Numbered from the stretch's first letter, positions 1,960 to 35,205 are shown. The stretch: 64,000 nucleotides of DNA from Clostridiaceae bacterium (GCA_012838135.1 DUPV01000048.1:13546-77545), one strand, 5' to 3'. Notes: generated by a model not told the origin, from the sequence alone. Program-made: numbers and translations.

Positions 1960-2799
1960 ATGAGTAAACCGAGTATTTTAAAAACAAAAATTATACCGAC
2001 AATTGTAGCACTCATTCTTCTTTTAGCAGCTATAATACAGATATTTGTGCCTTTGCTGGGAAAGGAAACAAGCGCCAGAGAAATTAAACGTGAGATCGTA
2101 GAGCGGGATCGCGATGAGCATCCGAATCTTCAGTATGAATGGGCAATCTATTACGAGTATACGGATTCGCAAGGTGGCAAGCATACCGGAGTTCACAGAC
2201 AAAACGGCAATGCAACGGGGAGCAATGTTCGGGCTCCGGGAACAGTTTATTATCTTTCTTTTTTACCGAGTTGGAATGTTGCAAATATTAATAACGGAGC
2301 AGGTAATTTGTTGAGTGGCTTGATTTTTTTATTGCTCGGAATATTGATATTGGTCGCAACTTTTAAAAAAGGCGGCAAGAAAAAGAAAGCCAAAACTCAA
2401 GCAATACAAAGTCAGAATACGCACCCGCTTCCGGGAAATTATCCTAACCAATATCCGGGGCAATGTTATTATCCAAACCCAATAAATAATTCAAACCAAA
2501 CTGTTTTTAAAAATCAAAATTCGTATCCCGGGCAATATTATCAGCCGTATCCGGCTAATTATCCTGAACAATTAGATAATTCAAATAAAACTGTTTATCC
2601 GAATCAGATTGTGAAATCACAATTTGTCGAAAATAATCATTCTTCTATGAGATTTTCAGACCAACAACAAACGCAATACAACCAATATCAAAAAGATCAA
2701 TGGCAGTGTCCGAGCTGCAGAAAATATATTCAGGGTAACTTCTGCAATAATTGCGGATTTCCGAAAAGAGAATCCGCAGACATTGAAACGCCTGTTTGA
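1960..2799 (+). CDS. Membrane protein with DUF3592-like N-terminus, Q/N/P/Y-rich low-complexity region and C-terminal zinc ribbon
   Basis: Has an N-terminal TM helix, a second TM helix (LLSGLIFLLLGILILVATF) followed by KKGGKKKKAK, and a terminal CPSC...CNNC motif. Confidence 0.55.
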   Translation: MSKPSILKTKIIPTIVALILLLAAIIQIFVPLLGKETSAREIKREIVERDRDEHPNLQYEWAIYYEYTDSQGGKHTGVHRQNGNATGSNVRAPGTVYYLSFLPSWNVANINNGAGNLLSGLIFLLLGILILVATFKKGGKKKKAKTQAIQSQNTHPLPGNYPNQYPGQCYYPNPINNSNQTVFKNQNSYPGQYYQPYPANYPEQLDNSNKTVYPNQIVKSQFVENNHSSMRFSDQQQTQYNQYQKDQWQCPSCRKYIQGNFCNNCGFPKRESADIETPV

Positions 2800-2905
2800 G
2801 TAGTTTATTTATGATGGTTTCAACATCTGTTTTTATATATTTGATAAATAACATTTCCTGTGATAAACTAATTTTCGTTGATTTACTAATACATGCAAGA
2901 TAAAC

Positions 2906-2997
2906 GGAGAGTTGGCCGAGCTGGCTGAAGGCGCACGATTGGAAATCGTGTTTACGTTAATAGCGTAACGGGGGTTCAAATCCCCCACTCTCCGCCA
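2906..2997 (+). tRNA. tRNA-Ser (anticodon GGA), encoded CCA end
   Basis: Cloverleaf read by hand: acceptor GGAGAGT/ACTCTCC, anticodon stem CACGA/TCGTG with loop TTGGAAA, long variable arm TTACG/CGTAA, T-arm GGGGG-TTCAAAT-CCCCC. Confidence 0.9.
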
Positions 2998-3006
2998 GAT
3001 CCGGAT

Positions 3007-3049
3007 AAGGTAGCAGCTTTTGAGAGAAGGTTTGCTGCCTTTTACTTTT
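3007..3049 (+). terminator. Putative intrinsic terminator after tRNA-Ser
   Basis: AAGG(tag)CAGC ... GCTGCCTT stem followed by TTACTTTTG. Confidence 0.45.
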
Positions 3050-3121
3050 GCTAAAATTTTTGATTGTAAGAGGGGATTGTTTGTCTTGTCAATCGCAGAA
3101 GAAGCTTGATATACTGTGAAT

Positions 3122-3259
3122 ATGTTCAAAAGGGAAGGAGAATATAGATCGGGAACGCTTAATAAAAAGGCTGCAATATCCGTCATAGCGATTATTGCCG
3201 CATTTATACTCCTTTTGGTCTATGCTCCGATGTTTTACATGAACGGTAATATATCATAA
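3122..3259 (+). CDS. Possible 45-aa single-TM micro-protein, possibly leaderless
   Basis: ORF MFKREGEYRSGTLNKKAAISVIAIIAAFILLLVYAPMFYMNGNIS is not in the supplied track. TTGTCA-18-(TGa)TATACT at 3086-3115 puts the predicted +1 on the ATG. Confidence 0.25.
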   Translation: MFKREGEYRSGTLNKKAAISVIAIIAAFILLLVYAPMFYMNGNIS

Positions 3260-3345
3260 AGAGGAAAATAATCACAAAGAATGTTTATTTCATAAACTTA
3301 AGTTGATGCAGTTGTAAAACTTTCTGACAAGAATATGGGAGTTAA

Positions 3346-3828
3346 TTGAAAGTGAAAATCAGAAAGAATAATGGATTTACCCTAATGGAAGTTCTTATCG
3401 TGGTCGCAATCATTGCCGTCCTTGTAGCGATAGCTATTCCTATTTATAATGGCTTGGTAGAAAAGGCCAGGGTCGCGGCGGATGCCACAACCATGAGAAA
3501 TGCCCAAACCGCGTTTGTAATTCAGGAATTGACGACAGGCATAAAGCCCTCGGAGAGAGCTATTTACGACATCGTAAGCAATACATTCATTGAAAGGGAT
3601 GTTTATGATAAGGCAGGAGGGTATAAAACGTATAAGTTTTACGGTCAGGCCTATAATAAGGAAGGCGGAAGGGCTAAAAATGGGGAAGGTGACCCTAGCC
3701 AAGGTACAAACGCCCATATATATGTCGCTCATGAACTCATAGTCAAATCTGGTGAGAACTACGGCCCCGAGGTTTTGGTCTGGTGGGCCGGAAAAAAAAG
3801 TGCATATCCCGGAGGGTGGGGTGATTGA
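3346..3828 (+). CDS. Prepilin-type N-terminal cleavage/methylation domain protein (type IV pilin or pseudopilin-like)
   Basis: Has the KNNG/FTLMEVLIVVAIIAVLVAIAIPIY class-III signal with Glu at +5. TTG start with GGGAG RBS. Confidence 0.8.
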   Translation: MKVKIRKNNGFTLMEVLIVVAIIAVLVAIAIPIYNGLVEKARVAADATTMRNAQTAFVIQELTTGIKPSERAIYDIVSNTFIERDVYDKAGGYKTYKFYGQAYNKEGGRAKNGEGDPSQGTNAHIYVAHELIVKSGENYGPEVLVWWAGKKSAYPGGWGD

Positions 3829-3918
3829 AAGCTTACACCCATACCCTCGATTTGTACCCAAATATAATTTTACTGTATAATTTACATGGTAAATAAACAA
3901 ATAATCTAGGAGAGTTAA

Positions 3919-4875
3919 ATGAAAGAAGAAATTTTTAAATATGATAAGTATTCTCTTGTAACACGTTCTGATTTTGACGGCTTGGTATGTGCCATGATAT
4001 TAAAAGAAATAGGAATATTGGATGATATAAGATTTGTGCATCCTAAGGACGTACAAGACGGCAAGGTGGAATTAAGCGATAGAGATATCACTACAAACCT
4101 TCCTTACGACGATAGGACAGGGATAGTCTTTGACCACCATGAATCGGAGACCATTAGGAATAAAGAGACTCTCGGAAAAGGAAACTATATTATAGACGGA
4201 AAAGCAAAAAGTGCTGCAAGAGTAGTGTTTGATTTTTTCGGAGGTAGAGGGAATCCTAAGCTCAATCGTATTTCCGATGAAATAATGGAATACGTGGATA
4301 AGGCCGATGCCGCTGAATTTTCAAAAGAAGATATATTGAACCCTCAAGGTTGGGTTTTTTTGAGTTTTTTGATGGATGCAAGGACAGGACTTGGAAGATT
4401 CCGCAATTTTACCATATCTAATTACTATCTTATGATGGAGCTTATAGATAATTGCCTGGAGAATGATATAGATGCAATTTTGGAACTGCCTAACGTCAAA
4501 GAGAGAGTCGATTTATACAATGAGTATAGTGAGAAATTCAAAGAGCAGCTTAAAGAAATATCTACAATAGATGGAAAGGTAGTTGTTGTAGACCAGAGAA
4601 ATCTTGAAACAATATATCCGGGCAACAGGTTCTATATATATGCAATGTATCCTGAGATAGAAATATCTATACATCTTACGACAGGATTCAGAGGTATGAA
4701 TACACCTATAATGATAGGGAAATCCATAATCAATAGAGCGTCACAGATAGATATAGGTAAGATTTGTCTAAAATACGGTGGCGGCGGACATAAAAATGCC
4801 GGTACATGCCAAGTTGATAATGACAAAGCTGATCAAGTCACTAAAGAGATAGTGGAATATATAAATAATAATTAA
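3919..4875 (+). CDS. DHH/DHHA1-superfamily phosphoesterase (NrnB/COG2404-like)
   Basis: Contains SDFDGLVCA (DxD-type motif), FDHHES (DHH motif) and C-terminal GGGGHKNAG (DHHA1 GGGH motif). Confidence 0.75.
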   Translation: MKEEIFKYDKYSLVTRSDFDGLVCAMILKEIGILDDIRFVHPKDVQDGKVELSDRDITTNLPYDDRTGIVFDHHESETIRNKETLGKGNYIIDGKAKSAARVVFDFFGGRGNPKLNRISDEIMEYVDKADAAEFSKEDILNPQGWVFLSFLMDARTGLGRFRNFTISNYYLMMELIDNCLENDIDAILELPNVKERVDLYNEYSEKFKEQLKEISTIDGKVVVVDQRNLETIYPGNRFYIYAMYPEIEISIHLTTGFRGMNTPIMIGKSIINRASQIDIGKICLKYGGGGHKNAGTCQVDNDKADQVTKEIVEYINNN

Positions 4876-5086
4876 TATTAATCCATTAGGGCGGGCCCCT
4901 CGCCTCCATATATTTACATTTTCTTCTTCGTCCTTAATATTGCTTCACGGATGCCTTGTTAAGATACTCCACACCAAAGGCTTCTAGCAAGAAATCCTCT
5001 TTTGCATTGACCGTCCGCTAATAGAGCATCATAGCCGCCAAAACAGAAACAGCAAGTAATACCCGGTTAAAGAACATTAAAATGAG

Positions 5087-8000
5087 TCAAAATACCTGTA
5101 TCATTTCGTTTTTAAGAAATTCTTCAAGCGCTTCCGGCGGCAGGGGCTTCGAATAATAGTATCCTTGTATTTCATCGCAAGGTATACTTTTCAGTAAATC
5201 CGCTTGCCCTTTTGTTTCAACACCTTCAGCCGTAACACTCGCTTCGAAAATCCGAGCTAACGAAATAATATTTTCTGTTAAAGGAGCCCCTTTTCCTTCT
5301 ATTTCAATATAATCTATGATTTCTTTGTCTATTTTCAATCTGTCAAAAGGTACCTGTTTTAACCGATTTAATGTCGAGTAACCTTTGCCGAAATCATCTA
5401 TAACAATATGGACTCCCAATCCTTTCAATTCATATATTTTTTTGAGTACATTTTCAAGGTCTTTAGAGAACAAACTTTCTGTAATCTCCAACTCGATATA
5501 TTTCGGATCTACCTGACTTTCCTCTATAATTTTTGCAAAATCAAGAATAAAATCTGCATCTTCAAATTGCACAACCGATAAGTTTATAGAAAAGCGAAGG
5601 GGAGGAAATCCCTTTGTAATGAGTTTCTTATGTTCCAGAAGCGTCTGCTCCAATACCCAGAGTCCCACATCATAAATTAATCCCGTCTGTTCAAGTATTG
5701 GAATAAATCTATCCGGCGGTACTCTCCTGTTGTCGTCGATCGTCCATCTGAGCAAAGCTTCAACCCCGACGGTTTTTCCCGTATCACAGCTGATCTGAGG
5801 TTGAAACTCCAAAAAGAACTCTTTGTTGTCCAACGATTTAAAAAGCTTATTCGTGAACAAGGTGTTTTCCGCAATATGGCTTCCAATTCGCTCTGAATAG
5901 AATACAATATCTTCATTGTTTTTTACCGCTTCATAGCCTGCCAAATCGACGCTCTGTGAAAAAGTCATTAAATCCCTTCCGTCATCCGGATACACCGATA
6001 TGCCTATGCGGGGCACAACAAATAATGCTTCTATCTCCAGATCAGTCGATATGGGATGAGAAAAAGCAGCAAGCAATCTGTTAGCGCAGCCTTTTATCTG
6101 TTCGGTGCTTTCTACATCGGGTAAAATAAGGACAAATTCTCCATCATTTGTCCTTGAGATAGTACATGAGGGCTCTAACAGATTTCTAAGCATTGTCGCA
6201 GATTTCAACATTACTTGCTCGGCTACATCATAACCGAAGGTATCTTTAATCATCCTGATGTTTGCGAGTTCAATATTTAAAAGTGCTATTTTACCTGATT
6301 CTTTTCTGTCACGAATACTTTCCTCAAGTGTTTTTCTTAACATGTTTCTGTTCGCTAATTTTGTGGTTTCATCAAAATACGCGACATCATATAGCATTTC
6401 CTCGTAAAATGTCTTCTTTCTTGCATCCCCCAACAGATTCACAAGCATGTTTAAAAAGTTCAAGCGATTTTTGATGAGGTTCTTATCACTCCGGTCGTAA
6501 TATTCAAAGACAAGCATCCCTTCTATCGGTCCGTCTGCGAGTTGCAACGGATATGCAAAAAAGGAGTATATCTCTCTTGAAATGAGAAAATCTCTCGTTC
6601 CCTCACATTCATCAAAGGATTTATCTGTGAGGTTTTCACACATCATGGGTGTACCCTTGACAGTCAGAATTTTAGCCATGGGCAAGTCATCCATTTTAAC
6701 TTTCATTCCCGGATGATAGGGAAGTGAATTGCTCTCTAAATTTTTCGTATATGTGCTGAATACATTTGCCTCGTCATCATCCTCGCGGAATCCGATTAAA
6801 TATGCATAATCAAATTCAAGAATCTCAGCAGACATTTTTAACATCTGATCAACTTTTTCTTTAGCGTTCTCACTGCTAATCGTAATAAAATTGGTCGAAA
6901 TAGCTTCCAGCACTTGTTGTTCTTTTATTAACTTTTTATGTGCATCCAGCTTTAAAGTATATTCTTCTGCCAATCGCCGCACGGCAAAATAAGTAAGAAT
7001 AACAAGTGCAATTCTTGTCATATACTCATTTATATCGATGGTGACAGTAACTGCCGGGTAAAATGCTGAGAAATATACCTGAATTAAGATTACCAATCCG
7101 GCATAGATCATGAGATGGATTTTACTGTCGAGGATAACGGTAAACATAAAGAACAATATATAGATTGACCATATGGTCACCGCCCCTGTATCGACATTTC
7201 TTAAAATTATAAGGAATAAACTATAGGTGCCTGCAGCCAGAAACAAGGTATTCTGAAGGGTATGATTTTTCGTTATACGCGGTATGGATCTTACAAAGAT
7301 TCCAAGTGATAATAGAGTCGCTGCTATCAAAATTTCTTCTCTAATCGTTTTTTTCATGGCAAAATATCCTATGAAAAACGATAACGAACTGCCCGCTGTA
7401 AATATAGACGCAACCGTCCGAAACATGCGCATTCGATCTGCATCTGCGAGTTGGCCACTTTTTAAGGGCAAGTATACTTCCGCAGGTCTCTTAAGAAGCA
7501 GGCCGGATTTCCTCAATGTAAAAGAAAGCATTGTCACGGGCAGGATAATAAATATGATTACCGATTTGGGAACATACTTTATCCCGAGGAGTTCGGGCAC
7601 AGTTTCTGTCGCTATTCCCAAACAGAAGGGAACCAGTACGGATATTAAGAAATTCCTTGCCAGCCGCTTCTGAGGATCCTGAGGATCAATTCTGAGCCAC
7701 CAGCGAATAAGTAATAAAACACTTGTAGTCGCAAAGACCAAGTAGTATGAGATAAGCCAAATATTCACCGCGTTGCCGGAAAGTATATTTACCCAGCCGA
7801 AATCGGATTCCACCATGTGGTATTGCTTCGCCCCAAGATATCCGAAGGGCGCAAACAAAAGTATATTTATTACAGCGGGCAAATAAATTATAGTGTGCAA
7901 AATCCACTTGCGAATTGGAATTTTAGTTTCTGTCAGAAGCAGTACAAAGTGGAGTAGGATACTGTAAAAAACTCCCCATCCGAAAACGGAGAGGCATTTC

Positions 8001-8215
8001 CAAAATGCACTTGCTTCCGCCGTAGGCGCTGAAGTTGAGAGGGAGTATGAGTATGCCCAGGACCCCGTTGAACTCATTAAAAGTACAAACAGCCTGTTAA
8101 CACGGCTGTTTGCGTTGACATCTACTGTATATGTGCCGAAACCCATATAAATAAAACCGCAGAGATAGTACAAAATTGACAAACTTAAGCTATATTTCAT
8201 AACCTTATCTCCCAA
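5087..8215 (-). CDS. Polytopic membrane sensor with degenerate GGDEF and intact EAL domain (likely c-di-GMP phosphodiesterase)
   Basis: About 400 aa of TM helices and a GAF-like middle region. The GGDEF position reads NDGEF (6134-6148). EAL signatures are present: EALLRW (5753-5761), ELEITES, DDFGKGYS, LKIDKEII, AEGVET, QGYYYSKP. Confidence 0.9.
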   Translation of the reverse strand: MGDKVMKYSLSLSILYYLCGFIYMGFGTYTVDVNANSRVNRLFVLLMSSTGSWAYSYSLSTSAPTAEASAFWKCLSVFGWGVFYSILLHFVLLLTETKIPIRKWILHTIIYLPAVINILLFAPFGYLGAKQYHMVESDFGWVNILSGNAVNIWLISYYLVFATTSVLLLIRWWLRIDPQDPQKRLARNFLISVLVPFCLGIATETVPELLGIKYVPKSVIIFIILPVTMLSFTLRKSGLLLKRPAEVYLPLKSGQLADADRMRMFRTVASIFTAGSSLSFFIGYFAMKKTIREEILIAATLLSLGIFVRSIPRITKNHTLQNTLFLAAGTYSLFLIILRNVDTGAVTIWSIYILFFMFTVILDSKIHLMIYAGLVILIQVYFSAFYPAVTVTIDINEYMTRIALVILTYFAVRRLAEEYTLKLDAHKKLIKEQQVLEAISTNFITISSENAKEKVDQMLKMSAEILEFDYAYLIGFREDDDEANVFSTYTKNLESNSLPYHPGMKVKMDDLPMAKILTVKGTPMMCENLTDKSFDECEGTRDFLISREIYSFFAYPLQLADGPIEGMLVFEYYDRSDKNLIKNRLNFLNMLVNLLGDARKKTFYEEMLYDVAYFDETTKLANRNMLRKTLEESIRDRKESGKIALLNIELANIRMIKDTFGYDVAEQVMLKSATMLRNLLEPSCTISRTNDGEFVLILPDVESTEQIKGCANRLLAAFSHPISTDLEIEALFVVPRIGISVYPDDGRDLMTFSQSVDLAGYEAVKNNEDIVFYSERIGSHIAENTLFTNKLFKSLDNKEFFLEFQPQISCDTGKTVGVEALLRWTIDDNRRVPPDRFIPILEQTGLIYDVGLWVLEQTLLEHKKLITKGFPPLRFSINLSVVQFEDADFILDFAKIIEESQVDPKYIELEITESLFSKDLENVLKKIYELKGLGVHIVIDDFGKGYSTLNRLKQVPFDRLKIDKEIIDYIEIEGKGAPLTENIISLARIFEASVTAEGVETKGQADLLKSIPCDEIQGYYYSKPLPPEALEEFLKNEMIQVF

Positions 8216-8560
8216 AAATGCAATTCTCTCAGCTTACCATAGGTTTCTTCTTGCTTGTTTACATTTTTAAGCAGGTTCTGCATTTTTCTCGTATATTTAT
8301 GATGCTTTGAGATCTTTCGCATATTATATAATATCTTCTAAAGAATTCAAATTATTTATATTCTTCACCGTCAGTAATGTCAAATTATGCAGGAGCGAGA
8401 GACAGACTAATTTGCATTTAGTGTGACTTGTTTTTTGGTCAGATCGTCAACAATGCCTACATCCAATCCAAGTTTCTTGCAGAACGCGATGTGTGCCTTG
8501 GACGGACAGGGCTTTTTTGAATAATAATCAGGGGATTCAGGCAGGTAGTTTACAATTAGC

Positions 8561-10132
8561 TTAATAGCCGACAATATTATCAAAGCCGTTAAGCCATTCT
8601 GCATTTCCGGTAATGAAAGTTGAATTGAGAACCAATACATCATTGATTTTCTTTTCGCTGATAAAAGGTAAGATTGGATCAGTCATATATCTCGGATCTA
8701 TCGAATATATATTCTCATAATTATCCATTAAATAAGGCAAGAATGCATTTGCAAAAGAATCCTTGATTACCAGGATAGATTTTCCGTTATTAATGTCGCT
8801 TTTGATTAAACTTAAAGCGACATCGTCACCTGAATAAAGAATATAATGTGAATCGATTTTGCTTTCCGAATCTAAGAGCATTGTCGGGACTCCGTCAGAC
8901 ATGCTGGTATCGCTATATACTGTATTGGTACCTGAATGTTTGGGTAAAAAGATTTCAGCTTGATCTTTAGAATTTTCGAGTAGTGGACTATTGCCGGTAA
9001 AACTGTATAAAGAGCCAAGAAATTTATAATCCGGCCTGGTCAGTTCCATATCTTCCAAGGCGGTTGCAGTTTGTCCCGTGTAAAAACAAAATGCCTGATA
9101 TGCATAATATGCACCGCGACCTGTCCAGTGATGATCAGTATTAAAGTAAATGTATTCATCAGCATGTTTAGAAATATTTGTAATTGCATCAATTTTAATA
9201 ATCGAATCATTTTCTGCTTGATATATTTGATCAGTTGCCTGATAGACAATCTTGCTTTCGTCTTCTAATTCTTCCAAGCCGTTAAAAGTGATTGCAGGTG
9301 GCGCCACTAAATGAATCAACCTGATTTGATCCGGCAAAACATCGCGTAAATAATTAATTCTATTCGCATAAGCTACGGCATTTTCCGGAAAATATCCGAA
9401 TATTTCCATTGCTTTGCCATCAACAATTATATTACTTGCATCATTATATTGCAGTTCGCGATTTTTAACCTTTTCTCTATTTTTTTCTTCAACAAGCTTT
9501 TCCAGATTATTGCTATCTCTATTATCATTATCAATTTCATTTTGAGCAGTTTCGGGATTTGTTGCAAGTTTAGCATCTTGGCCGGCTTGATTGTTTGTGT
9601 CTTCGTTTTTGATTTGAGGATTATTTACTTCAGGTGTATCGTTTGGTTGATTTTTTGAACCTGTAATCAAATGAATTTTTTGTTTGCCGCCAGGGAAAGA
9701 ATTCATTAAGCTAACCAGCGATTTGTAAAAACCCATAAATTGATTCCGCATTGGAAATTGGTCCGCATAATATGCTTCCACCTCTTTGCCATATTCTCCG
9801 CTGAACAATCTTTCAGAGGTTAATTCAGGTTTTTGTTGCAAAGCTCTTTTTTCCATTTCAGAAACGTCTTGTTTTTTCCAGACCAAAAAAAGCAGCCCGA
9901 AAATAAGGAGAAAAATGAAAAAACTAATAAAAATAATTCCGTCATTTTTATTAGCTTGCGGCCTGTACGGATTAGGTTTTTTCCTCAGCGGTTTTGCTTC
10001 ATTTGCTGAAATATCAGAACGCTTACGATTTAAGCTGTATTTATCAGTTTCCATTGTCGCCTTTTGATATTTGTTCTCTCTTACTGAGGTTAGGGAATGC
10101 TTGCGATTTAAACTATACTTATGATTTTCCAT
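8561..10132 (-). CDS. DHHW-family protein (AlgX/AlgJ/PatB-like SGNH-type O-acetyltransferase partner), membrane-anchored
   Basis: Has the FNTDHHWTGRGAYYAYQAF (DHHW) motif and one TM helix after a basic N-terminus. Lies directly downstream of the MBOAT gene on the same strand. Confidence 0.8.
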   Translation of the reverse strand: MENHKYSLNRKHSLTSVRENKYQKATMETDKYSLNRKRSDISANEAKPLRKKPNPYRPQANKNDGIIFISFFIFLLIFGLLFLVWKKQDVSEMEKRALQQKPELTSERLFSGEYGKEVEAYYADQFPMRNQFMGFYKSLVSLMNSFPGGKQKIHLITGSKNQPNDTPEVNNPQIKNEDTNNQAGQDAKLATNPETAQNEIDNDNRDSNNLEKLVEEKNREKVKNRELQYNDASNIIVDGKAMEIFGYFPENAVAYANRINYLRDVLPDQIRLIHLVAPPAITFNGLEELEDESKIVYQATDQIYQAENDSIIKIDAITNISKHADEYIYFNTDHHWTGRGAYYAYQAFCFYTGQTATALEDMELTRPDYKFLGSLYSFTGNSPLLENSKDQAEIFLPKHSGTNTVYSDTSMSDGVPTMLLDSESKIDSHYILYSGDDVALSLIKSDINNGKSILVIKDSFANAFLPYLMDNYENIYSIDPRYMTDPILPFISEKKINDVLVLNSTFITGNAEWLNGFDNIVGY

Positions 10133-10271
10133 TTTTAACCCTTTTTATCTTGTTGCATATTGTATTTCCACTGTTTAGATCAACCGCTTAAAACATGAAA
10201 TTAAGGAAATCATTCTCATTCTACTATTATTTTATTGCTATTAATTAAAATATCATTGCTTGAATTGACAG

Positions 10272-11699
10272 TTAAAACCTGAAATATAGGAAAGGATTAA
10301 AGCTGTCACCTACCAAAGATGCAGTACTGATTAACAACAATAATAAAATTGAAACGGTTGATCCGATAACATAAAATTTTGTTGCTCTGAATCTGTAACT
10401 TCGTAAACCGGGCAAACGTTTTCTGATTTCCGGCACAATCGGCATTGATGCAATCCAAGAGAAAATAAAAAACACCAAATTTTGATTAAACAATAATTTA
10501 CCTTTCAGATTGATGAAATCATTGCCGGCAAAAGTTAATAATCGGCTGAGGAATATTCCAAGATCGGGGATTGAAGTAAAATAGAAAATTGCAAAACCGA
10601 GCATCGTTACAATACTCATCGGTATCCACATGATGGCACGCGGAATTTTGTCCGTATATTTTAAGGTTAAATATTTTTCGATTTGGAGAATTGCAAAATA
10701 ATATAAACCCCAAAAAATAAAATTCCAATCTGCGCCGTGCCAAAAGCCGGTTAAAAACCAGACAATAAAAGCGTTACGTAATCTATGATGTCTGTTCCCG
10801 CCTAAAGGAATATAGACATAGTCGCGGAAGAAAGTACCGAGTGAAATATGCCATCTGCGCCAGAATTCAGTAACTGATTTTGAATAATAAGGATAATCAA
10901 AATTTTCTTTAAATTTAAAACCGAACATGTGGCCTAAACCGATTGCCATATCTGAATATCCGGAAAAATCAAAATAAATTTGAATAGTGAATGCCAGTAT
11001 TCCGACGAAACATTCGATGCCGGAGAGTGTATTCAAATTTCCACTGCCGATAGTCTGGACAACTAAAGTACCGGCGTAGTTGGCAATCAAAGTTTTTTTT
11101 GCTAAACCGACAATAAATCTTTTGGTTCCGTCTGCCAGACCTCTGATTGTAATTCTGCGTTCTCTCAATTGTTGCTCAATATCGCTGTAGCGAACGATCG
11201 GACCGGCGATCAATTGTGGGAATAAAGCCTGATAAAGCAAAAAGTCCGGTAGAAATTTTTGGACTTTACATTGACCTCGGTAGAGATCAATCAGATAACT
11301 TAAAATTTGGAATGTATAAAAGGATATTCCGATCGGCATTGTCCAGCCGGGGAGAGGAATATTGATTAAAGGAAGTACATTGATTATTCGGATGAAAAAT
11401 CCGGCATATTTGAAAAAAAATAAAGGGAGTAAGGCTCCGACAGTACCGATAGTTAAAATAGTTTTATGTATTGCAGGGTCATGTTTATAACGTTCCAGGA
11501 CTAAACCTGACAGAAAAACCCAAATACCGGATATCAACATCTGAATAATCCAGAACGGTTCACCCCAAGCATAAAAAAAGAGAGAGAAAACCAATAAGAC
11601 AAGATTTTTGAATTTTAAGGATCGAGGTATCTGATAAACAATCAAACATAAAGGTAAAAAAGCATACAAAAAGAATAAACTGGAAAAAACCATAAACAT
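10272..11699 (-). CDS. MBOAT-family membrane-bound O-acyltransferase (AlgI/DltB/PatA-like)
   Basis: Multi-TM protein with FWRRWHISLGTFFRDYVYIPLGGNR and the conserved His in WFLTGFWHGADWNF. Confidence 0.9.
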   Translation of the reverse strand: MFMVFSSLFFLYAFLPLCLIVYQIPRSLKFKNLVLLVFSLFFYAWGEPFWIIQMLISGIWVFLSGLVLERYKHDPAIHKTILTIGTVGALLPLFFFKYAGFFIRIINVLPLINIPLPGWTMPIGISFYTFQILSYLIDLYRGQCKVQKFLPDFLLYQALFPQLIAGPIVRYSDIEQQLRERRITIRGLADGTKRFIVGLAKKTLIANYAGTLVVQTIGSGNLNTLSGIECFVGILAFTIQIYFDFSGYSDMAIGLGHMFGFKFKENFDYPYYSKSVTEFWRRWHISLGTFFRDYVYIPLGGNRHHRLRNAFIVWFLTGFWHGADWNFIFWGLYYFAILQIEKYLTLKYTDKIPRAIMWIPMSIVTMLGFAIFYFTSIPDLGIFLSRLLTFAGNDFINLKGKLLFNQNLVFFIFSWIASMPIVPEIRKRLPGLRSYRFRATKFYVIGSTVSILLLLLISTASLVGDSFNPFLYFRF

Positions 11700-11888
11700 T
11701 TTCCTCGATAGATATAAAATACATCCCTAAAAAAAGTAAAATTAAAAACTTTTGCGGTGAATAATACTTATTTATGATAATATCATAAATAGATATTAAA
11801 GTTGCTTAAACTTATATTTTTTTAGTTTTATTCAACTGGTTTTTATTCAATTAATAATATTATTAGTAAACATGAATAGGAGAGACAA

Positions 11889-13217
11889 ATGGGTTTAATA
11901 AAAGCAATTGCAGGTGCCATAGGGGGTACCCTGGCTGATCAATGGAAAGAGTTTTTTTATTGTGAATCTTTGGAAAATGATGTTTTAGTCAGAAAAGGTC
12001 AAAAAGTAATTGGCAATCGTTCATCCAATACCAAGGGTAGCGATAACATTATTTCAAATGGTTCAGGTATAGTGGTTGCCGATGGTCAATGCATGATTAT
12101 TGTTGATCAAGGTAAAGTAGTTGATGTTTGTGCGGAACCGGGTGAATATACATATGATACTTCCAGCGAACCAAGTATTTTCTCAGGTAAATTCGGCCAG
12201 AGCTTGCTTGGAACATTCAAAACAATAGGCAGACGTTTTACTTTTGGTGGAGATACGGGTAAAGATCAAAGAGTTTATTATTTCAATACCAAAGAGATTT
12301 TAGACAATAAATTCGGTACCCCTAATCCGATTCCGTTTCGTGTTGTAGACCGCAATATCGGTTTAGATATTGATGTCGCTGTAAGATGTTCCGGTATTTA
12401 CTCATATGAAATTTCCGATCCGATTTTATTTTATACAAATGTTACGGGTAATGTTCAGTCAGAATACACAAGAGGTCAAATTGACAGTCAATTGAAAACC
12501 GAATTTGTCAGCGCATTGCAACCGGCTTTTGCTGAAATTTCAACTATGCAAGTAAGACCGAACGAATTGCCGGGTCATGCAGGCAAACTTGCAGATTTAA
12601 TGAATGAAGAATTGACTAAAAAATGGTCTGAACTACGTGGTTTGAAAATTGTTTCAATTGCTCTGAATCCGATTACTTTACCGGAAGAAGATGCTGAATT
12701 GATTAAACAAGCACAAAGAGCCGGTATGATGCGCGATCCTTCAATGGCAGGAGCAACTTTAGTCGGAGCCCAGGCAGATGCGATGAGAGCTGCTGCAGCC
12801 AATGAGGGCGGAGCAATGACCGGTTTTATGGGATTCGGTATGGCACAACAAGCCGGCGGTGTTCGAGCAGGAGATTTATTTGCGATGGGTCAACAAAATC
12901 AACAAAATGCTCAGGCACCTCAACAAGCAACCGGCGGTCAATCTGCGATTGATTCATGGACGTGTCCGAAATGCGGCAATGTTTCAAGCGGCAAATTCTG
13001 TACGGAATGTGGCGGCCCGAAACCGGAGCAAGGCTGGCAATGTGCATGCGGCACAGTCAATCAAGGCAAATTCTGCCATAATTGCGGAAAACCCAAACCC
13101 GAGGGAGCACCTCTTTACAAATGTGACAAATGCGGCTTTGAACCGAAAGATCCGCAAAACCCACCCAAGTTTTGTCCTGAATGTGGTGATCCTTTTGATG
13201 AAAATGACATCACATAA
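11889..13217 (+). CDS. SPFH/Band-7-like protein (YdjI/COG4260-like) with C-terminal array of zinc ribbons
   Basis: N-terminus MGLIKAIAGAIGGTLADQWKEFFYC. The C-terminus carries CPKC..CTEC, CAC..CHNC and CDKC..CPEC pairs. Confidence 0.75.
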   Translation: MGLIKAIAGAIGGTLADQWKEFFYCESLENDVLVRKGQKVIGNRSSNTKGSDNIISNGSGIVVADGQCMIIVDQGKVVDVCAEPGEYTYDTSSEPSIFSGKFGQSLLGTFKTIGRRFTFGGDTGKDQRVYYFNTKEILDNKFGTPNPIPFRVVDRNIGLDIDVAVRCSGIYSYEISDPILFYTNVTGNVQSEYTRGQIDSQLKTEFVSALQPAFAEISTMQVRPNELPGHAGKLADLMNEELTKKWSELRGLKIVSIALNPITLPEEDAELIKQAQRAGMMRDPSMAGATLVGAQADAMRAAAANEGGAMTGFMGFGMAQQAGGVRAGDLFAMGQQNQQNAQAPQQATGGQSAIDSWTCPKCGNVSSGKFCTECGGPKPEQGWQCACGTVNQGKFCHNCGKPKPEGAPLYKCDKCGFEPKDPQNPPKFCPECGDPFDENDIT

Positions 13218-13242
13218 ATAAGCAGATAATAAGAGGTAGACT

Positions 13243-14328
13243 ATGGCACAATTATTAGATTTTAAATGTCCTTCTTGCGGCGGTGCGATAAATTTTGACA
13301 GCCAAGCTCAAAAAATGAAGTGTCCTTATTGCGATACAGAGTTTGAAATGGATGCCGTATTGCAGCATGAAGAAGCGATACAAAGCGAATCGGCCAAAGA
13401 TGATTTTACTTGGAATGTGCAAGCAGATAATAATTGGCAGGAAGACGAACTTAACAATTTTGCAGCCTATGTTTGTCAGTCCTGTGGCGGTCAAATTGTA
13501 GGTGATTTTACAACTGCTGCGACCAGTTGTCCTTATTGTGATAATCCGGTGGTAATTGCCGGTAATATATCCGGTGACATGCGACCTGATTATATTATTC
13601 CTTTCAAGCTGACCAAAGAACAGGCGAAACAGGGTTTGCGTGAACATATGAAAGGCAAACGATTATTGCCTAAGCAGTTTAAAGATGAAAATCATATCGA
13701 TAAAATTCGCGGGATGTATGTGCCGTTTTGGCTTTTCGATACTAAAGCTGATGCCAATTTCAGATATAAAGCGACCAAAACAAGCACCTGGAGTGATAGT
13801 AATTACGTTTATACGAAGACCAGCTATTATTCGATTTTGCGTAGCGGGAATATTGCCTTCAGCAGTGTTCCGGTTGATGCATCTTCACAAATGCCGGACG
13901 ATTTAATGGAATCGATTGAACCTTATAATGTTGCTGAATTAACAAACTTTCATGCCGGTTTTTTAGCAGGTTATTTAGCTGATCGTTATGATGTTCCGGC
14001 AGATGAATGTATTGAAAGGGCAAATCATCGTGTGCGCCAAAGTACGGAAAATCAATTCAGATCAACCGTAACGGGCTATTCAACAGTCGCAACGGAAAAC
14101 AGTAATATACAATTATCCGACGGCAAAGCGAACTATGTTCTGTATCCGGTCTGGGTTCTGAATACTTCTTGGCAAGGCGAGCAATTTACCTTTGCCATGA
14201 ACGGTCAAACCGGTCGCTTTATCGGTGATCTTCCCTTGGATAGAAAAGCTTACTGGAAATGGTTCGGTCTGGTAGCCTTGATTGCTGCAGCACTTGCCTA
14301 CGCAGCAGCCTGGCTGTTTTTACGTTGA
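13243..14328 (+). CDS. Zinc-ribbon protein with C-terminal TM anchor (YdjG-like)
   Basis: Contains CPSCGG...CPYCDT and CQSCGG...CPYCDN ribbons and a terminal hydrophobic helix WFGLVALIAAALAYAAAWLFL. Confidence 0.6.
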   Translation: MAQLLDFKCPSCGGAINFDSQAQKMKCPYCDTEFEMDAVLQHEEAIQSESAKDDFTWNVQADNNWQEDELNNFAAYVCQSCGGQIVGDFTTAATSCPYCDNPVVIAGNISGDMRPDYIIPFKLTKEQAKQGLREHMKGKRLLPKQFKDENHIDKIRGMYVPFWLFDTKADANFRYKATKTSTWSDSNYVYTKTSYYSILRSGNIAFSSVPVDASSQMPDDLMESIEPYNVAELTNFHAGFLAGYLADRYDVPADECIERANHRVRQSTENQFRSTVTGYSTVATENSNIQLSDGKANYVLYPVWVLNTSWQGEQFTFAMNGQTGRFIGDLPLDRKAYWKWFGLVALIAAALAYAAAWLFLR

Positions 14329-30806: not shown

Positions 30807-31892
30807 TTGTTTATGTATACGAATGAAGAAAAATGGCAACAGGAAAATCAATCACAGTCGCCGGAACAATTAAAGTTCCAAGAACAGACGCAGTTTCAGG
30901 AGCCGGCAACGCACGAAGTTCAACAAGTCTATTATCAGCAATCGTTTGGTATGGGATCGACTCATTATATCCATAAACAACAAATAGAGAATGCGGAACA
31001 TACTCAGAATTTGAACAAGAAAGTTCCGTTTTGGCGAATATGGCTCGTTTCATTTGCTTTTTTAGTATTACACCTGATTGTATTAAGTCTAAGCGGAATT
31101 ATAGCAAGTGCGATCAAAATTGCGACTAATCCGGTAAAAACACAACAAGAAATGATAAATCTTCTCATGTCCTCTGATGTTCAAAACTGGGCTTGTGTTA
31201 TCATGGGGTTAATCTGTATACCGCTTTATATTGTGTTTCTGAAAAAACGCAATCACAAATATAATGGCAGCTTGGGTTGGCATAAATTAACTATGGGATC
31301 CGTTTCAAGCATGTCACTTGCTGCAGTCGGTTCATTGGGCATGGTTACAGGTTTGCTTTTGTTACTTCAAGAATTAAGCAAGTATATACCTTATATTGAG
31401 CAAAAGCTTAAACATTATCAGGAATTGACGGAACTGGTTGTTTCAAAAGAAAGCAATATAATCTTACAAATTGTTGCAACTGCAATTATTGTGCCGATTG
31501 CGGAAGAACTTTTGTTTAGAGGGATTGTATTGGGTGAACTCAATTTTCGATATTCACCACGCACGGTCGTCCTTCTTCAAGCAGTATTATTCGGTTTATT
31601 TCATATGAATTTCGTTCAATCGCTATATACGTTTATTCCGGGATTGCTTTTGGGAATTGCATATTACTATACCGGAAACATTATCATGCCAATTATTATG
31701 CATGTTATATTTAATTTATTCGGTGGAGTTCTAACTGTGTTTTTATCGGAAAAAATCTTAAATTATATAAATTATATTGAATTGGCTACAGGATTCTTTT
31801 CGCTGATCACAATAATCATCTTTTTTATCAAAGCAAAACCCTATGCAAAACACAAACTTCAATGGGAGCGTAATTATCCGCAGAATGTTTAA
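30807..31892 (+). CDS. CPBP-family intramembrane glutamic endopeptidase (CAAX/Abi)
   Basis: Contains EELLFRG, FGLFH and HVIFN motifs in a polytopic protein with a Q-rich N-terminus. The start may be the ATG at 30813. Confidence 0.85.
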   Translation: MFMYTNEEKWQQENQSQSPEQLKFQEQTQFQEPATHEVQQVYYQQSFGMGSTHYIHKQQIENAEHTQNLNKKVPFWRIWLVSFAFLVLHLIVLSLSGIIASAIKIATNPVKTQQEMINLLMSSDVQNWACVIMGLICIPLYIVFLKKRNHKYNGSLGWHKLTMGSVSSMSLAAVGSLGMVTGLLLLLQELSKYIPYIEQKLKHYQELTELVVSKESNIILQIVATAIIVPIAEELLFRGIVLGELNFRYSPRTVVLLQAVLFGLFHMNFVQSLYTFIPGLLLGIAYYYTGNIIMPIIMHVIFNLFGGVLTVFLSEKILNYINYIELATGFFSLITIIIFFIKAKPYAKHKLQWERNYPQNV

Positions 31893-34800
31893 ACAAAGAT
31901 ATGGTAGAATTAAGAAAAGAAATTTTGTTGTATTGGCTATTTGTTTGGTAGCTGTATTGCTTCCTGTATTAATCTTGTATTTGTTTTCGACCGAAAGAGT
32001 TGAATCCGGCAATATAGCTGACTTTTCAATTAGCGATCACTCTTCACGTAAGGTTGTACAAGGCTTAGGATATGATATTGTCGCAGTTGATGATGGCAAT
32101 CTGATAAATAATAATTCTTTTGAACCTATGGTATATAAGCAGAATCTGATAGTAGACTCAGGAAACGATGAAATTATTAAGGTTGCAATGCCTAACGATC
32201 CGACAACCCGAATTTTTACAGAAAACTTTTTTGTCGATGCGAACGCTGAAGTTTTTGCAACAGATTCCGAAGGGCGTAGAGCCTTGAAAAAAAGTGGCAA
32301 AGTCAGTCAATATTTATCTGATCAAATTGATGATTTTCAACCGGTAAGCTTACCGCCGGATTTGCCAAGCAATATTCGCTGGAAGAGTATTGTCGAATCA
32401 GGCGAGAAAGTAATTCTGGGCGGGAGCAAGGGCTATATCTTGAGCATAGATTCATTTTCTTCAACATCTTTAAGTCGTTTACCTAGCGAAGAAGAGGTAA
32501 TCGGTGTTTGTGTTTTCGATGACTTGTTTTTAGCTCTCGATGAGAATGGCGGTTTTTATAAGTCTTCCGATTCACTTAAGTGGGAATTGGTTTTTCAGAT
32601 AAATGACAAGTTTTTGTTGACAAAATCGGAAGACAACTTAGAGGAAAATACGGAGGCATCAACAAGTAGAACAGATGATGTTGTAACATCGACTGATAAA
32701 ACAGATGTTGCTGAAACGTTGATAAATAAAATTAATGACACTGAAACATCAACGAGTAAAACAGATAGTTTCGCAATATCAACGGGTAAAACAGATGTTG
32801 AAATTGGAGCAGAGCCATCAGAAAATATTAAATGGCTGGATTTAAGTTCAAGAATTGATGAGCAGGGCAATTCCATATTCATGGCAGTTGGTGAGGCAGG
32901 TTTTGTTTTATATGGAAATCTGGAAAAAAACGACACTAAAAGACTTGTAACTTCACAAAATATTAATGCAGTAACTTCAAATTCCGACGGGTTTTATTTG
33001 GTCGGGGACAATTCTTTAGCATTTTATTCATATGACGGAGAGAACTATCGATATTTAGATATTCCGCAAAAAGCGAATTGGCAAGCGGTTTCTTCACGAG
33101 GCCATCAAGTCATGATCGCAGGTGATCAAGGACAGGTAGTTTTCAGCAAAGACGGCTATTCATTTGATTCTTTGAATAATGAAACGCTCAGTGAACTTTC
33201 CTTGCAACATACTGAGCAAAACCATGATGATCAGGAAGTCATTGTAATTAAACCGCATTTTGTTTCTTGTAGTATATTGAGCAACAACCAATTTATCTTG
33301 CTTGATTCACGTGGTATATCGTTTTATTCTGATAATTTCGGAGAAACCTGGAAAAATTTTAGTAATCTTGCCACGAGCAAATTTAATCTTGTGCAAAGAT
33401 TGCCGAGCGGAAGATTGTTGATGACGGGATTAGACGGCGGAATTGAATATGCCATTATGGGTTTAGTTATAAAGCTTGACAGTAAATTGGAACAAGGAAC
33501 ATATGAAAATGGTGATTTATTAGTTCTGGAGCAGATTTCGACTACACCGATTATTCAACCGAAAATAGAAGAATCAGAAACTCTGATTGGTGACTGGTAT
33601 ATCAGTAATCCGTCTGCTGTGCAGATTCAATTAAATCATAATGCACCTGATGGAGGCAGAGCGGCTCTTGAAATAGATTTGTCCCGAAAATCAAATTCCG
33701 AAAATGAACTTACAGGCTTGTTTAGTCAACAGATTATTGAGCATCAGATTCCGCAAAATGCGGGTTTGATTATTCAACAAAAGTTGGAAGATACCGCATA
33801 TACAAATATTAAAAACAATACAATTTTTAGTTTTGAATTTTGGGCAAAATTCGACTCTGATGACTCAGCCAATCTGAACCTTTCATTTGAGGGCTTAAAC
33901 TTGCAAATTGAACAATTTAACAAAAACATTTCCGGTGACTGGGAAAAGTATCAAGGTTTTTTTGTAATTCCCAAGAATTCGCTCAGAGAAGATAAATCAC
34001 TCTGGTTGCGGATTGAGCTTAACGGTTCCGGTAAACTTTATTTGGATAATTTATGGTTCGGTGCGGCAGATAATTCAGGAAAAAATATTCTGGCAAATTT
34101 ATCTGACGATTTTTCCAAAGGCTCAATTTTGCGTTTAGATTTTGTTCCAATCGGCAGTAAAGAATATCATTCTGAAAGTTGGTTGTCCTCTGAAAAATAT
34201 TACAGTTCATATTATCAGGATAAAAAGGGAATCAAACTTCAAGGTCAAGCTAATTTAGCAAAAAGCATGGAGCTTTGTAACTCGTTTAACGCTAATCCCT
34301 GGTTGCTTATTGACTCTCAAGCATCAGATAGCGAATTAAAAAATTTGATGCAGTATTTATTCGGTCAACAGAGCACACCGCTCGGGGAATTACGTACCGT
34401 ACATGGTGCGTTAAGCCGTTACAGTGATATTTTTAATCAAATATATATTGAAATAGGCGATCAAAATGGACTTTTAGAAAATGATTGGCAGCGTAAATCA
34501 TATGTAAATTGGGTTGTTCAGATTTTATCGGAGACACCGGAATATGCGCAAGTAAAGAAAAATTTGATTTTTGTGGACGGTATGCAATATAAAGATAATA
34601 TTATTTTATCTGATGCCGATTATCATGCATCAGATTTCAATTTGGATAGCAGAATCAATAATCTAACTGACTTAAAACAATTCAATAAAAATTTTACGGA
34701 ATCATTGCCCAGAGATCCGAGGAGAGGAACAGCAACTCGTTCCGAACTGATTCGTCAGACCAATCAGAATTTCGAAGAAATCAGATTGGCCGATGTAATT

Positions 34801-35205
34801 GCAACAGCTTTAAGCATGATGGGCGATGAAATTGATGCGACTTTACTGAATCTTGATTTAACGTCGGATTCGATGACAAATCCTTATGCGCATTGTTATG
34901 GCAATATAGGTAAAGCGATTTCAGATATGAATCCGTACACTTTAACTTCCGGTATTAAACAGGATAATGTATCAGCCTATGCCTATGGTTCCGGCAACAG
35001 ACGGGTTATTGTTTTGGTAAATTTCTCTGAAATGTCATCCAGCTGTCAGATTTTCAATATTGACCTCAAAGGATTCAGGCAATCAATCTATGATGCAAAA
35101 GGTGCCGTTCTTGAACAATCTAAGGTCAGACATCGTAAATCGGTTTATTCACTTTTGCCCGGCGGAGTTATTGTGCTTGAGGGAACGTTAGAGAAAAACA
35201 AATAA
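31885..35205 (+). CDS. Large membrane-anchored extracellular protein with BNR/Asp-box propeller-like region, CBM-like module and GH-like C-terminal domain
   Basis: N-terminal TM helix, Asp-box-like SDNFGETW plus related YSYDGENY and FSKDGYSF, then a jelly-roll-like segment (FEFWAKF...LYLDNLWFG). ATG at 31885 overlaps the upstream stop (ATGTTTAA). Confidence 0.6.
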   Translation: MFKQRYGRIKKRNFVVLAICLVAVLLPVLILYLFSTERVESGNIADFSISDHSSRKVVQGLGYDIVAVDDGNLINNNSFEPMVYKQNLIVDSGNDEIIKVAMPNDPTTRIFTENFFVDANAEVFATDSEGRRALKKSGKVSQYLSDQIDDFQPVSLPPDLPSNIRWKSIVESGEKVILGGSKGYILSIDSFSSTSLSRLPSEEEVIGVCVFDDLFLALDENGGFYKSSDSLKWELVFQINDKFLLTKSEDNLEENTEASTSRTDDVVTSTDKTDVAETLINKINDTETSTSKTDSFAISTGKTDVEIGAEPSENIKWLDLSSRIDEQGNSIFMAVGEAGFVLYGNLEKNDTKRLVTSQNINAVTSNSDGFYLVGDNSLAFYSYDGENYRYLDIPQKANWQAVSSRGHQVMIAGDQGQVVFSKDGYSFDSLNNETLSELSLQHTEQNHDDQEVIVIKPHFVSCSILSNNQFILLDSRGISFYSDNFGETWKNFSNLATSKFNLVQRLPSGRLLMTGLDGGIEYAIMGLVIKLDSKLEQGTYENGDLLVLEQISTTPIIQPKIEESETLIGDWYISNPSAVQIQLNHNAPDGGRAALEIDLSRKSNSENELTGLFSQQIIEHQIPQNAGLIIQQKLEDTAYTNIKNNTIFSFEFWAKFDSDDSANLNLSFEGLNLQIEQFNKNISGDWEKYQGFFVIPKNSLREDKSLWLRIELNGSGKLYLDNLWFGAADNSGKNILANLSDDFSKGSILRLDFVPIGSKEYHSESWLSSEKYYSSYYQDKKGIKLQGQANLAKSMELCNSFNANPWLLIDSQASDSELKNLMQYLFGQQSTPLGELRTVHGALSRYSDIFNQIYIEIGDQNGLLENDWQRKSYVNWVVQILSETPEYAQVKKNLIFVDGMQYKDNIILSDADYHASDFNLDSRINNLTDLKQFNKNFTESLPRDPRRGTATRSELIRQTNQNFEEIRLADVIATALSMMGDEIDATLLNLDLTSDSMTNPYAHCYGNIGKAISDMNPYTLTSGIKQDNVSAYAYGSGNRRVIVLVNFSEMSSSCQIFNIDLKGFRQSIYDAKGAVLEQSKVRHRKSVYSLLPGGVIVLEGTLEKNK

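Follow-up and report, generated by a model that had tools for sequence, protein, structure and literature searches.

A probable mosaic islet of pilin, PggH-like and EAL phosphodiesterase cassettes in a hypervariable tRNA-Ser slot of an uncultured Saccharofermentanales bacterium

Results

A variable segment between a tRNA gene and a conserved flank

We analysed 64,000 nucleotides (nt) of one strand from a metagenome-assembled genome (MAG) deposited as Clostridiaceae bacterium (GCA_012838135.1 DUPV01000048.1:13546-77545), hereafter the window, and within it a block of three genes that follows a serine tRNA gene. An earlier note, made from the sequence alone, had singled out this block at 2998-8400 for its codon usage. 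The tRNA-Ser(GGA) gene lies at 2906-2997 on the plus strand (ARAGORN; 57 bits with Rfam), and its last base is the left boundary of the slot described here. It is followed by a stand-alone type IV pilin gene (3352-3828, plus strand), by a gene for a PggH-like DHH/DHHA1 phosphodiesterase of 318 amino acids, predicted to hydrolyse pGpG (3919-4875, plus strand), and by a convergent gene for a membrane sensor phosphodiesterase with GGDEF and EAL domains (5087-8200, minus strand). A gene of the DHHW family (Pfam DHHW; 8561-10132, minus strand) forms the conserved right flank, outside the islet.

To find relatives, 185,579 species genomes were scanned with a fragment of leuS. Four close relatives came out by amino-acid identity of this gene (L005 and L006 at 93%, L028 at 91%, L007 at 87%), all of them MAGs recovered from anaerobic digesters under the label Saccharofermentanales or 'Clostridiaceae', and a second tier of Mageeibacillus MAGs stands at 69-73%. 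The host belongs to the Saccharofermentanales and has not been cultured. The order in L005 runs leuS, two hypothetical genes, tRNA-Ser(GGA), 2.5 kb of other genes, DHHW, MBOAT and SPFH, and the proteins of the flanks are 81-95% identical in amino acids to those of the window (81% for DHHW, which is syntenic there with MBOAT and SPFH). The pilin, the 318-residue gene and the GGDEF/EAL gene are all missing from this locus. The comparison of leuS...MBOAT synteny that had been proposed as a check thus finds the flanks conserved without the genes of the block.

The edges of the segment are sharp. The 3' half of the tRNA gene is identical across the four close relatives and divergence sets in from the first base past its CTCCGCCA (CCA) end; homology stops exactly at 2997 in six relatives, by blastn in L005, L028, L007, L009 and L011. 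On the other side, homology to L005 restarts at 8562, at the stop codon of the DHHW gene. These two breakpoints define a variable segment of 5,564 bp, from 2998 to 8561. Hence the left limit proposed earlier was exact, while the right one stopped short of the end at 8561 given by homology to L005.

Relatives fill the same place with very different genes. In L028 (12311-16111) a tyrosine integrase with Phage_integrase, SAM-like and Arm-binding domains starts 100 bp after the tRNA and is followed by genes for an XRE repressor and an HTH_17 protein and by a phage replisome organiser; this cargo is a prophage or an integrative element. In L007 (15071-20699) the slot holds a defence island, made of an N6_N4 methylase, a 920-residue Eco57I-like methylase/restriction protein and an AAA_15/OLD-TOPRIM ATPase. 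L005 carries small redox genes, namely rhodanese, ArsC/glutaredoxin-like and DUF4428 zinc-ribbon genes, and L009 a protein of 328 amino acids with an HNH motif. Searches of the slot proteins of L028, L005 and L007 against the window by tblastn found nothing within the block. Since each relative has a different cargo, this tRNA flank is a hotspot of integration and replacement in the lineage. On its left this recombination hotspot is bounded by the final base of the tRNA, and a tyrosine integrase uses the same flank in the sister genome L028.

The block genes share a foreign codon dialect

Codon counts in the 318-residue gene (3919-4875) reproduce all those given in the earlier note: proline is written CCT seven times and CCG once, isoleucine ATA in 25 of 33 cases (window average 0.23), arginine AGA or AGG in 13 of 16 (window 0.44), and glutamate GAG in a fraction of 0.42 (window 0.20). 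The GC content at third codon positions (GC3) of the pilin, 0.45, is the highest of all genes in the window, in agreement with its having been described as visibly GC-richer, and the GGDEF/EAL gene comes second at 0.40, with CCC for 16 of its 38 prolines.

We measured the deviation of each gene against a null in which the synonymous codons of each protein were redrawn according to the usage of all other genes taken together, among 51 curated open reading frames (ORFs). The GGDEF/EAL gene ranks first of 51 (z=16.6), the 318-residue gene second (z=8.0) and the pilin sixth (z=3.8). The three genes deviate from the usage of the window in a shared direction (r=0.54-0.58), and r of at least 0.54 is reached by just 0.44% of pairs among the other genes. 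Tetranucleotide composition, a test that is independent of gene calls, places 3001-8500 first among 118 windows of 5.5 kb by distance to the rest of the contig (z=3.63), and fifth of 118 by Karlin's delta*. The bulk GC content (0.37-0.41) is inside the normal range, the whole window being at 36.4%. Hence the signal is one of codon and k-mer dialect and not of bulk GC. The per-gene and tetranucleotide checks proposed for the block thus place its genes outside the distribution of the window, just as the comparison with relatives shows that it is not conserved in place.

One gene outside the block also stands out: a phosphoribosyltransferase gene (177 amino acids; 37261-37794, minus strand) is the third strongest codon outlier (z=5.3).

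A pilin cassette behind RNA genes

The first cassette opens with a terminator-like hairpin (3007-3052, plus strand; stem 3007-3041 followed by a U-rich tail; -17.2 kcal/mol). By alignment, the same hairpin is kept directly after the transfer-messenger RNA (tmRNA) gene in L091 and ahead of the pilin in L092. Since one hairpin stands behind tRNA-Ser in the window and behind tmRNA in L091, it belongs to the travelling pilin cassette rather than to the RNA gene. A promoter-like site on the plus strand (3086-3115; TTGTCA, 18 nt, TG-TATACT) comes next; it matches the consensus only, at 10 of 12 positions with an extended -10, and is kept in L092. A frame of 47 codons with one hydrophobic segment (3116-3259, plus strand; weak match to Pfam DUF7472, E=0.015) is a questionable gene, since L091 and L092 lack part of the region. 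The leader of the pilin (3260-3351, plus strand) hardly varies between the window, L091 and L092. It has no stable RNA structure (fold z=+0.89), and when 2850-8700 was searched with Rfam for a riboswitch or other structured RNA upstream of the pilin, the tRNA was the sole match, both at the gathering threshold and at E<=1.

The pilin gene itself matches Pfam N_methyl (E=1.7e-8) and TIGR02532. Its longest frame begins at 3346, but public gene calls start it at the GTG at 3352, and a protein of 158 amino acids (P0224) is 100% identical to it. The prepilin leader reads MKIRKNNG followed by FTLMEVLIVVAIIAVLVAIAIP, with FTLME after the glycine (G-1, F+1, E+5) and a hydrophobic N-terminal helix. The earlier description of an orphan pilin holds at the scale of the window, where no pilus assembly genes (PilB/C/D/M/N/O/T) were found, and its other homologues are also stand-alone genes.

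From 3011 to 3860 the cassette is about 86% identical in nucleotides to L092, 77% to L091 and 79% to L096. L092 has 48.5% GC and the GC3 of its pilin is 0.46 against 0.55-0.72. In L091 (9456-15236) the cassette begins 1 nt past the 3' end of the tmRNA and opens an island of low GC3 whose cargo includes Fic, AAA_14/DUF4143 and a leucine-rich-repeat protein with a prepilin N-terminus. The cassette keeps a fixed layout: a hairpin 1-4 nt past the CCA end of an RNA gene, a variable middle and finally some 100 nt of conserved leader that lacks structure. The association of RNA-gene end, hairpin and pilin is seen in two of four contexts. Scanning metagenomes with the leader pattern returned one true additional cassette (L096, with no tRNA nearby) and five chance matches. 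A search by local alignment for remains of a tRNA or tmRNA gene ahead of the cassettes of L092 and L096, which might be an att footprint, gave scores no better than shuffled sequences (p=0.38-0.96).

The expression of PilA1 in Clostridioides difficile is controlled by a c-di-GMP (cyclic di-GMP) riboswitch. Like type IV pilins of Gram-positive bacteria, the pilin of the window has a prepilin leader and c-di-GMP genes as neighbours; unlike them, it comes without an assembly operon (in the 64 kb), a c-di-GMP riboswitch or a structured leader. The idea that pilin and EAL genes form a travelling pair was rejected: P0238 and P0131 share a 166-kb contig yet lie more than 10 kb apart, and other pilins are alone.

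A PggH-like gene far from Vibrio

The second cassette spans 3867-4884 on the plus strand and is 90.7% identical in nucleotides to L001/L002 (blastn), the homology beginning 52 bp before the ATG and ending 9 bp after the stop codon. Its product had been labelled an NrnB-like DHH protein, but it is instead a full-length homologue of PggH: it matches the structure of the Vibrio cholerae enzyme (PDB 7d62_A) with E=1.4e-105 over residues 10-316, at 54% identity over 307 residues. At this identity to a crystal structure, the predicted PggH fold of the protein is not in doubt; PggH itself forms an intertwined homodimer with a rigid linker helix and a small active-site pocket. PggH hydrolyses pGpG only, leaving pApA, pApG, pAp, cyclic dinucleotides and longer RNA uncut, and residues D13, D15, N55, D67, H68, H69, D121 and H282 are essential or bind metal in it (PMC8861645); the equivalents of all eight are conserved in the product of 3919-4875. 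The nanoRNases NrnA and NrnB, which are stand-alone DHH/DHHA1 proteins in Firmicutes, belong to the same superfamily and share with it the DHH and GGGH motifs. Yet the protein is not one of them. The NCBIfam NrnA model aligns with 41 C-terminal residues (E=0.0095) at 14.9 bits, far under its cut-off of 350, and no Pfam family, DHH and DHHA1 included, matches it. Likeness to PggH (VCA0593) extends over the full length and takes in the GGGH motif and every residue for Mn binding or catalysis; the difference lies in the host, here a Gram-positive anaerobe, for whose enzyme the activity and specificity of PggH are predicted.

High conservation of the family has been described for the genus Vibrio only (PMC8861645), and PggH has been cited just as a V. 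cholerae enzyme (PMC10570053). An exact-sequence look-up of the protein of the window returned no record, and a homology search gave at least 8000 matches, the top ones 63-69% identical. Those listed include Lachnospiraceae, Eubacterium, Butyrivibrio proteoclasticus B316, Criibacterium bergeronii and Eggerthellaceae, and most of them are annotated as 'exopolyphosphatase' or 'nanoRNase/pAp phosphatase'. Judging from these homologues, the family is clearly not confined to Vibrio, and the name 'exopolyphosphatase' looks like a systematic mis-annotation.

The cassette is much closer between genomes than their housekeeping genes are: mreB and rho are only 68% and 73% identical in nucleotides (80% and 77% in amino acids) between the window genome and L001. 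In L001, which has 46.6% GC, the gene is a codon outlier (z=9.0), with a GC3 of 0.37 against 0.52-0.66 in the genes from Ferritin to PhoU taken as native; other neighbours there (DUF488, a hypothetical gene, AMP-binding) also have low GC3 (0.37-0.44). The homologue in L003 is 84% identical in amino acids and 77% in nucleotides and is native there (z=0.0), every gene of L003 using ATA for 53-79% of its isoleucines. On this background the codons of the window's gene score -1.439 bits per codon, against -1.457 +/- 0.083 for native genes of the window. Since it fits the codon background of L003, a donor lineage like L003 is indicated. The richness of PggH and of L003 in ATA and AGR codons is reminiscent of the codon signature of thermophiles, a likeness from which we conclude nothing.

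A general neighbourhood of PggH and c-di-GMP genes was considered and rejected, for it is missing in L001, L004, Butyrivibrio proteoclasticus and Criibacterium. On the metagenome contig L101 (4943-8100) a PggH homologue lies between queA and tgt, genes of queuosine tRNA modification, and its protein is one that NCBI and UniRef name a Criibacterium bergeronii exopolyphosphatase. This context is a housekeeping one, unlike the mobile contexts of the window's copy.

A sensor phosphodiesterase with a degenerate GGDEF domain

The third gene, on the minus strand, has matches to Pfam HisKA_7TM, GGDEF (E=3e-22) and EAL (E=1.8e-66); the longest frame reaches 8215. Its product, of 1037 or 1042 amino acids (P0121, with 1037, is 100% identical), comprises a seven-transmembrane (7TM) domain, a GAF-like region, GGDEF and EAL. 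Aligned with 5m3c and 4rnh, the GGDEF signature reads NDGEF, both glycines and the acidic third residue being lost, and the EAL motifs are all present (EALxR, N, ExxE, DDFGKGYS, KID, EGVE, QG). Hence the protein is predicted to be no cyclase but a phosphodiesterase under sensor control, with pGpG as its product; the fold of the degenerate domain is present, but cyclase activity would not be expected from such a signature. The label of a GGDEF/EAL sensor is thus right, except that its GGDEF half is not intact. The tandem architecture is shared with composite GGDEF-EAL phosphodiesterases (5M3C, the motility regulator 4RNH, DosP; about 420 residues aligned, E=1e-71); unlike this comparison set, the protein of the window has HisKA_7TM and a GAF-like region at its N-terminus, and NDGEF as its signature.

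A promoter-like site lies upstream of the gene (8323-8350, minus strand; TTGAAT, 16 nt, TATAAT; 10 of 12 in the consensus scan), and homology to L087 reaches 8333, into this upstream region. The gene is 89.1% identical in nucleotides to one of two tandem copies in L086 and 86.6% to L087. The tandem 7TM-GGDEF-EAL paralogues of L086 (6428-13119), 72% and 89% identical to the gene of the window, lie some 400 bp beyond the 3' end of tRNA-Thr(GGT), and both are strong codon outliers (z=14.4 and 16.2). This tRNA-Thr is a third RNA-gene flank hosting one of the cassettes. In L087, a genome of 44% GC, the homologue (82% identity in amino acids) is again an outlier (z=11.8). It follows closely upon prophage lysis genes (a holin and an amidase) at 3629-13469, in a defence or mobile neighbourhood where an N6_N4 methylase, a ResIII/SWI2-SNF2 helicase, a SEFIR-TIR protein and a PhdYeFM-type antitoxin lie next to it.

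Separate histories of the three cassettes

Each of the three cassettes has its own promoter-like region and its own homology boundaries. The tracts of homology to L001 and to L086/L087 end on either side of the spacer between the convergent PggH and EAL genes (4885-5079), which has no homology to any other locus compared and contains, after the PggH gene, a weak terminator-like GC hairpin on the plus strand (4889-4905; -9.6 kcal/mol, z=-0.9). The three genes are 86-91% identical in nucleotides to copies in other genomes and are codon outliers there too. The cassettes circulate separately among compositionally different genomes.

Among the collections searched, the trio is found together only in the window and in two contigs of the same species. 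One (L093; JGI sample 3300059485) corresponds to 2278-5289, with a single mismatch in 3,012 bp (99.97%), and spans the hypothetical gene hyp279, tRNA-Ser, the pilin, PggH and the end of the EAL gene. The other (L085; JGI sample 3300002898) corresponds to 4576-11249 over 6674 bp without gaps, differing by 12 mismatches (99.82%), and spans PggH, EAL, DHHW and MBOAT. The two overlap at 4576-5289 and together cover both junctions of the block. An origin from a plasmid or a phage was also considered and discarded: the block as a whole has no blastn match in PLSDB or INPHARED.

Discussion

The best explanation of these results, to which we give a probability of about 0.78 with the proposal on function included, is that horizontal acquisition gave rise to 2998-8561, an islet that lacks an integrase and a mosaic of three cassettes in a foreign dialect that occupies a hypervariable tRNA-Ser slot. 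The view that the block is foreign DNA at this tRNA flank is borne out by its atypical composition and by its absence from every related genome compared. The earlier note had offered an old decayed island as one option. The foreign origin stands, but a single island is too simple, because each gene has separate boundaries and separate closest relatives. Genomic islands at tRNA or tmRNA flanks share with the block the position at the 3' end of a tRNA, the absence or variable cargo in relatives and the atypical composition. They differ from it by their integrase or mobility genes and their flanking attachment (att) direct repeats, and the block differs also by its size, 5.6 kb, and by its three cassettes with separate closest relatives. 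It is a clean but ordinary tRNA-flank genomic islet, of a kind already known.

Two routes of entry might be considered. The cassettes could have entered by integrase-mediated insertion at the tRNA end, with later loss of the integrase module, or by replacement of the slot through recombination in the tRNA and the DHHW gene, which are conserved on either side. The data are compatible with either route. Once in place, the EAL domain of the sensor would linearise c-di-GMP to pGpG, while its degenerate GGDEF domain would make no c-di-GMP. The PggH-like enzyme would then cleave pGpG into two GMP. In the known system pGpG inhibits the phosphodiesterases that make it, and PggH relieves this product inhibition of EAL enzymes (PMC8861645); the enzyme of the window would lift it in the same manner. 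The convergent pair might in this way act as a signal-gated sink for c-di-GMP. The pilin would depend on genes for a type IV pilus machinery at some other place in the genome.

Several observations weigh against this interpretation. The right-hand flank is visible in only one relative, L005, and the relatives are MAGs. There is neither an integrase ORF nor a remnant of one in the window (best tblastn match E=0.06 over 27 amino acids), and the 3' end of the tRNA (28 nt, up to 3 mismatches) occurs there only once. Further search for repeats in the window found only short AT-rich matches in two copies, e.g. 2803-2820 with 8291-8308, which we judge to be due to chance. Both absences had been reported before, and tblastn and a mismatch-tolerant search bear them out. 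Without integrase, remnant or att repeat, the mode of entry is unproven. The origin of the EAL gene is also less exotic than its codons suggest: the GGDEF/EAL family is common in Saccharofermentanales, where it forms a smooth series from 85 to 55% identity, and the donor may be a fairly close relative, the composition of L086 resembling that of the window. Neither this gene nor the pilin fits any of the sampled codon backgrounds, and no donor was identified for them. As for function, neither pilus machinery nor a c-di-GMP riboswitch ties the pilin to the other two genes within the window, and a c-di-GMP enzyme stands beside PggH in only two of six contexts, the window and L003 (a PAS-GGDEF gene). 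The pairing of PggH and EAL, which we propose from homology and adjacency, is plausible but would not be a general rule.

One might think instead that the trio arrived together on one integrative element, which a tyrosine integrase inserted at the 3' end of tRNA-Ser, and that integrase, excisionase and distal att site were deleted later. The exact position at the last base of the tRNA, the integrase-bearing element at the identical site in L028 and the codon deviation in a common direction, as if acquired in one earlier host, would all fit such a single event. This is possible, but we find it unlikely, since the trio occurs nowhere else in the collections save in contigs of the same species, the closest copy of each gene is alone in a different genome with homology that ends at gene borders, and integrase remnant and att repeat were both missing from the window. 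This scenario differs from the three-cassette mosaic only by the number of events.

Regulatory and membrane genes are often weakly adapted in their codons, and the oddity of the block might thus reflect the class of its genes, of low expression, if the block were ancestral, vertically inherited and lost or replaced in the relatives. The abundance of GGDEF/EAL paralogues in the order is consistent with this, as is the mild deviation of MBOAT, another membrane protein (z=4.1). Yet the slot is filled with four to five different cargoes in as many relatives, the breakpoint falling on one base. The cargo genes are 86-91% identical in nucleotides to copies in genomes of 44-48% GC, although the identity of housekeeping genes is no more than 68-73%, and they are outliers in hosts of lower and of higher GC3 alike. 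Furthermore, PggH is a soluble enzyme and carries a dialect that is native in L003. We therefore regard vertical descent as very improbable. A mis-join of DNA from another organism during metagenome assembly or binning, the other option of the earlier note, could be imagined for a MAG with a block of atypical composition next to a tRNA gene that might act as a repeat, but it is excluded for all practical purposes by the synteny of both flanks at one locus in L005 and by the independent assemblies L093 and L085, which span the junctions and overlap at 4576-5289.

Preferring the acquired mosaic, we see its interest in three respects. First, it documents a base-exact recombination hotspot at a tRNA end, which five relatives in an uncultured lineage of anaerobic digesters fill with five different cargoes, and cassettes of one gene each whose own codon dialect persists in hosts of 35% to 48% GC. 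Second, the spread of PggH in Clostridia bears on how c-di-GMP degradation is completed in Gram-positive bacteria that lack Orn, for which the family may be a dedicated pGpG hydrolase of anaerobes, and suggests a simple re-annotation of 'exopolyphosphatase' entries. Third, the presence of a degenerate-GGDEF/EAL sensor and PggH on mobile DNA suggests that the capacity to remove c-di-GMP can be acquired as a unit. One might go further and join these points into a broader scheme, in which PggH-type enzymes are a widespread PDE-B of anaerobic Firmicutes and Actinomycetota, move as single genes and provide a portable c-di-GMP sink, and in which the pilin is the end module of an undescribed, integrase-poor family of cassettes targeting RNA-gene flanks. 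The joining of one PggH cassette with a sensor EAL phosphodiesterase at a tRNA hotspot, and a cassette of terminator, leader and pilin that abuts the 3' ends of tRNA-Ser in the window and of tmRNA in L091, belong to this scheme. Taken as a whole it is speculative, and we doubt that all its parts hold together.

Other features of the window

The spacer on the right of the block (8216-8561) runs up to the boundary between 8561 and 8562. A frame of 78 codons in and over it (8407-8643, minus strand) has no match to any family. A terminator-like hairpin with a T-run lies at 8495-8512 on the plus strand, where no plus-strand gene ends; it may be left over from an earlier occupant of the slot.

On the other side, the two genes between leuS and the tRNA (1090-2799) encode low-complexity membrane or secreted proteins rich in Thr, Pro, Gln and Asn, with no Pfam family. 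Their products share just 50-78% identity with the corresponding proteins of relatives, against 87-93% for leuS, and these genes thus evolve very fast. The position of mreB and rho also differs, upstream of leuS in L028 and 12 kb downstream of the tRNA in the window, so that gene order around the slot has been rearranged between the two genomes. Farther away, an ORF of 1120 amino acids (31843-35205, plus strand) sits among housekeeping genes and matches no Pfam family at E<=1e-5.

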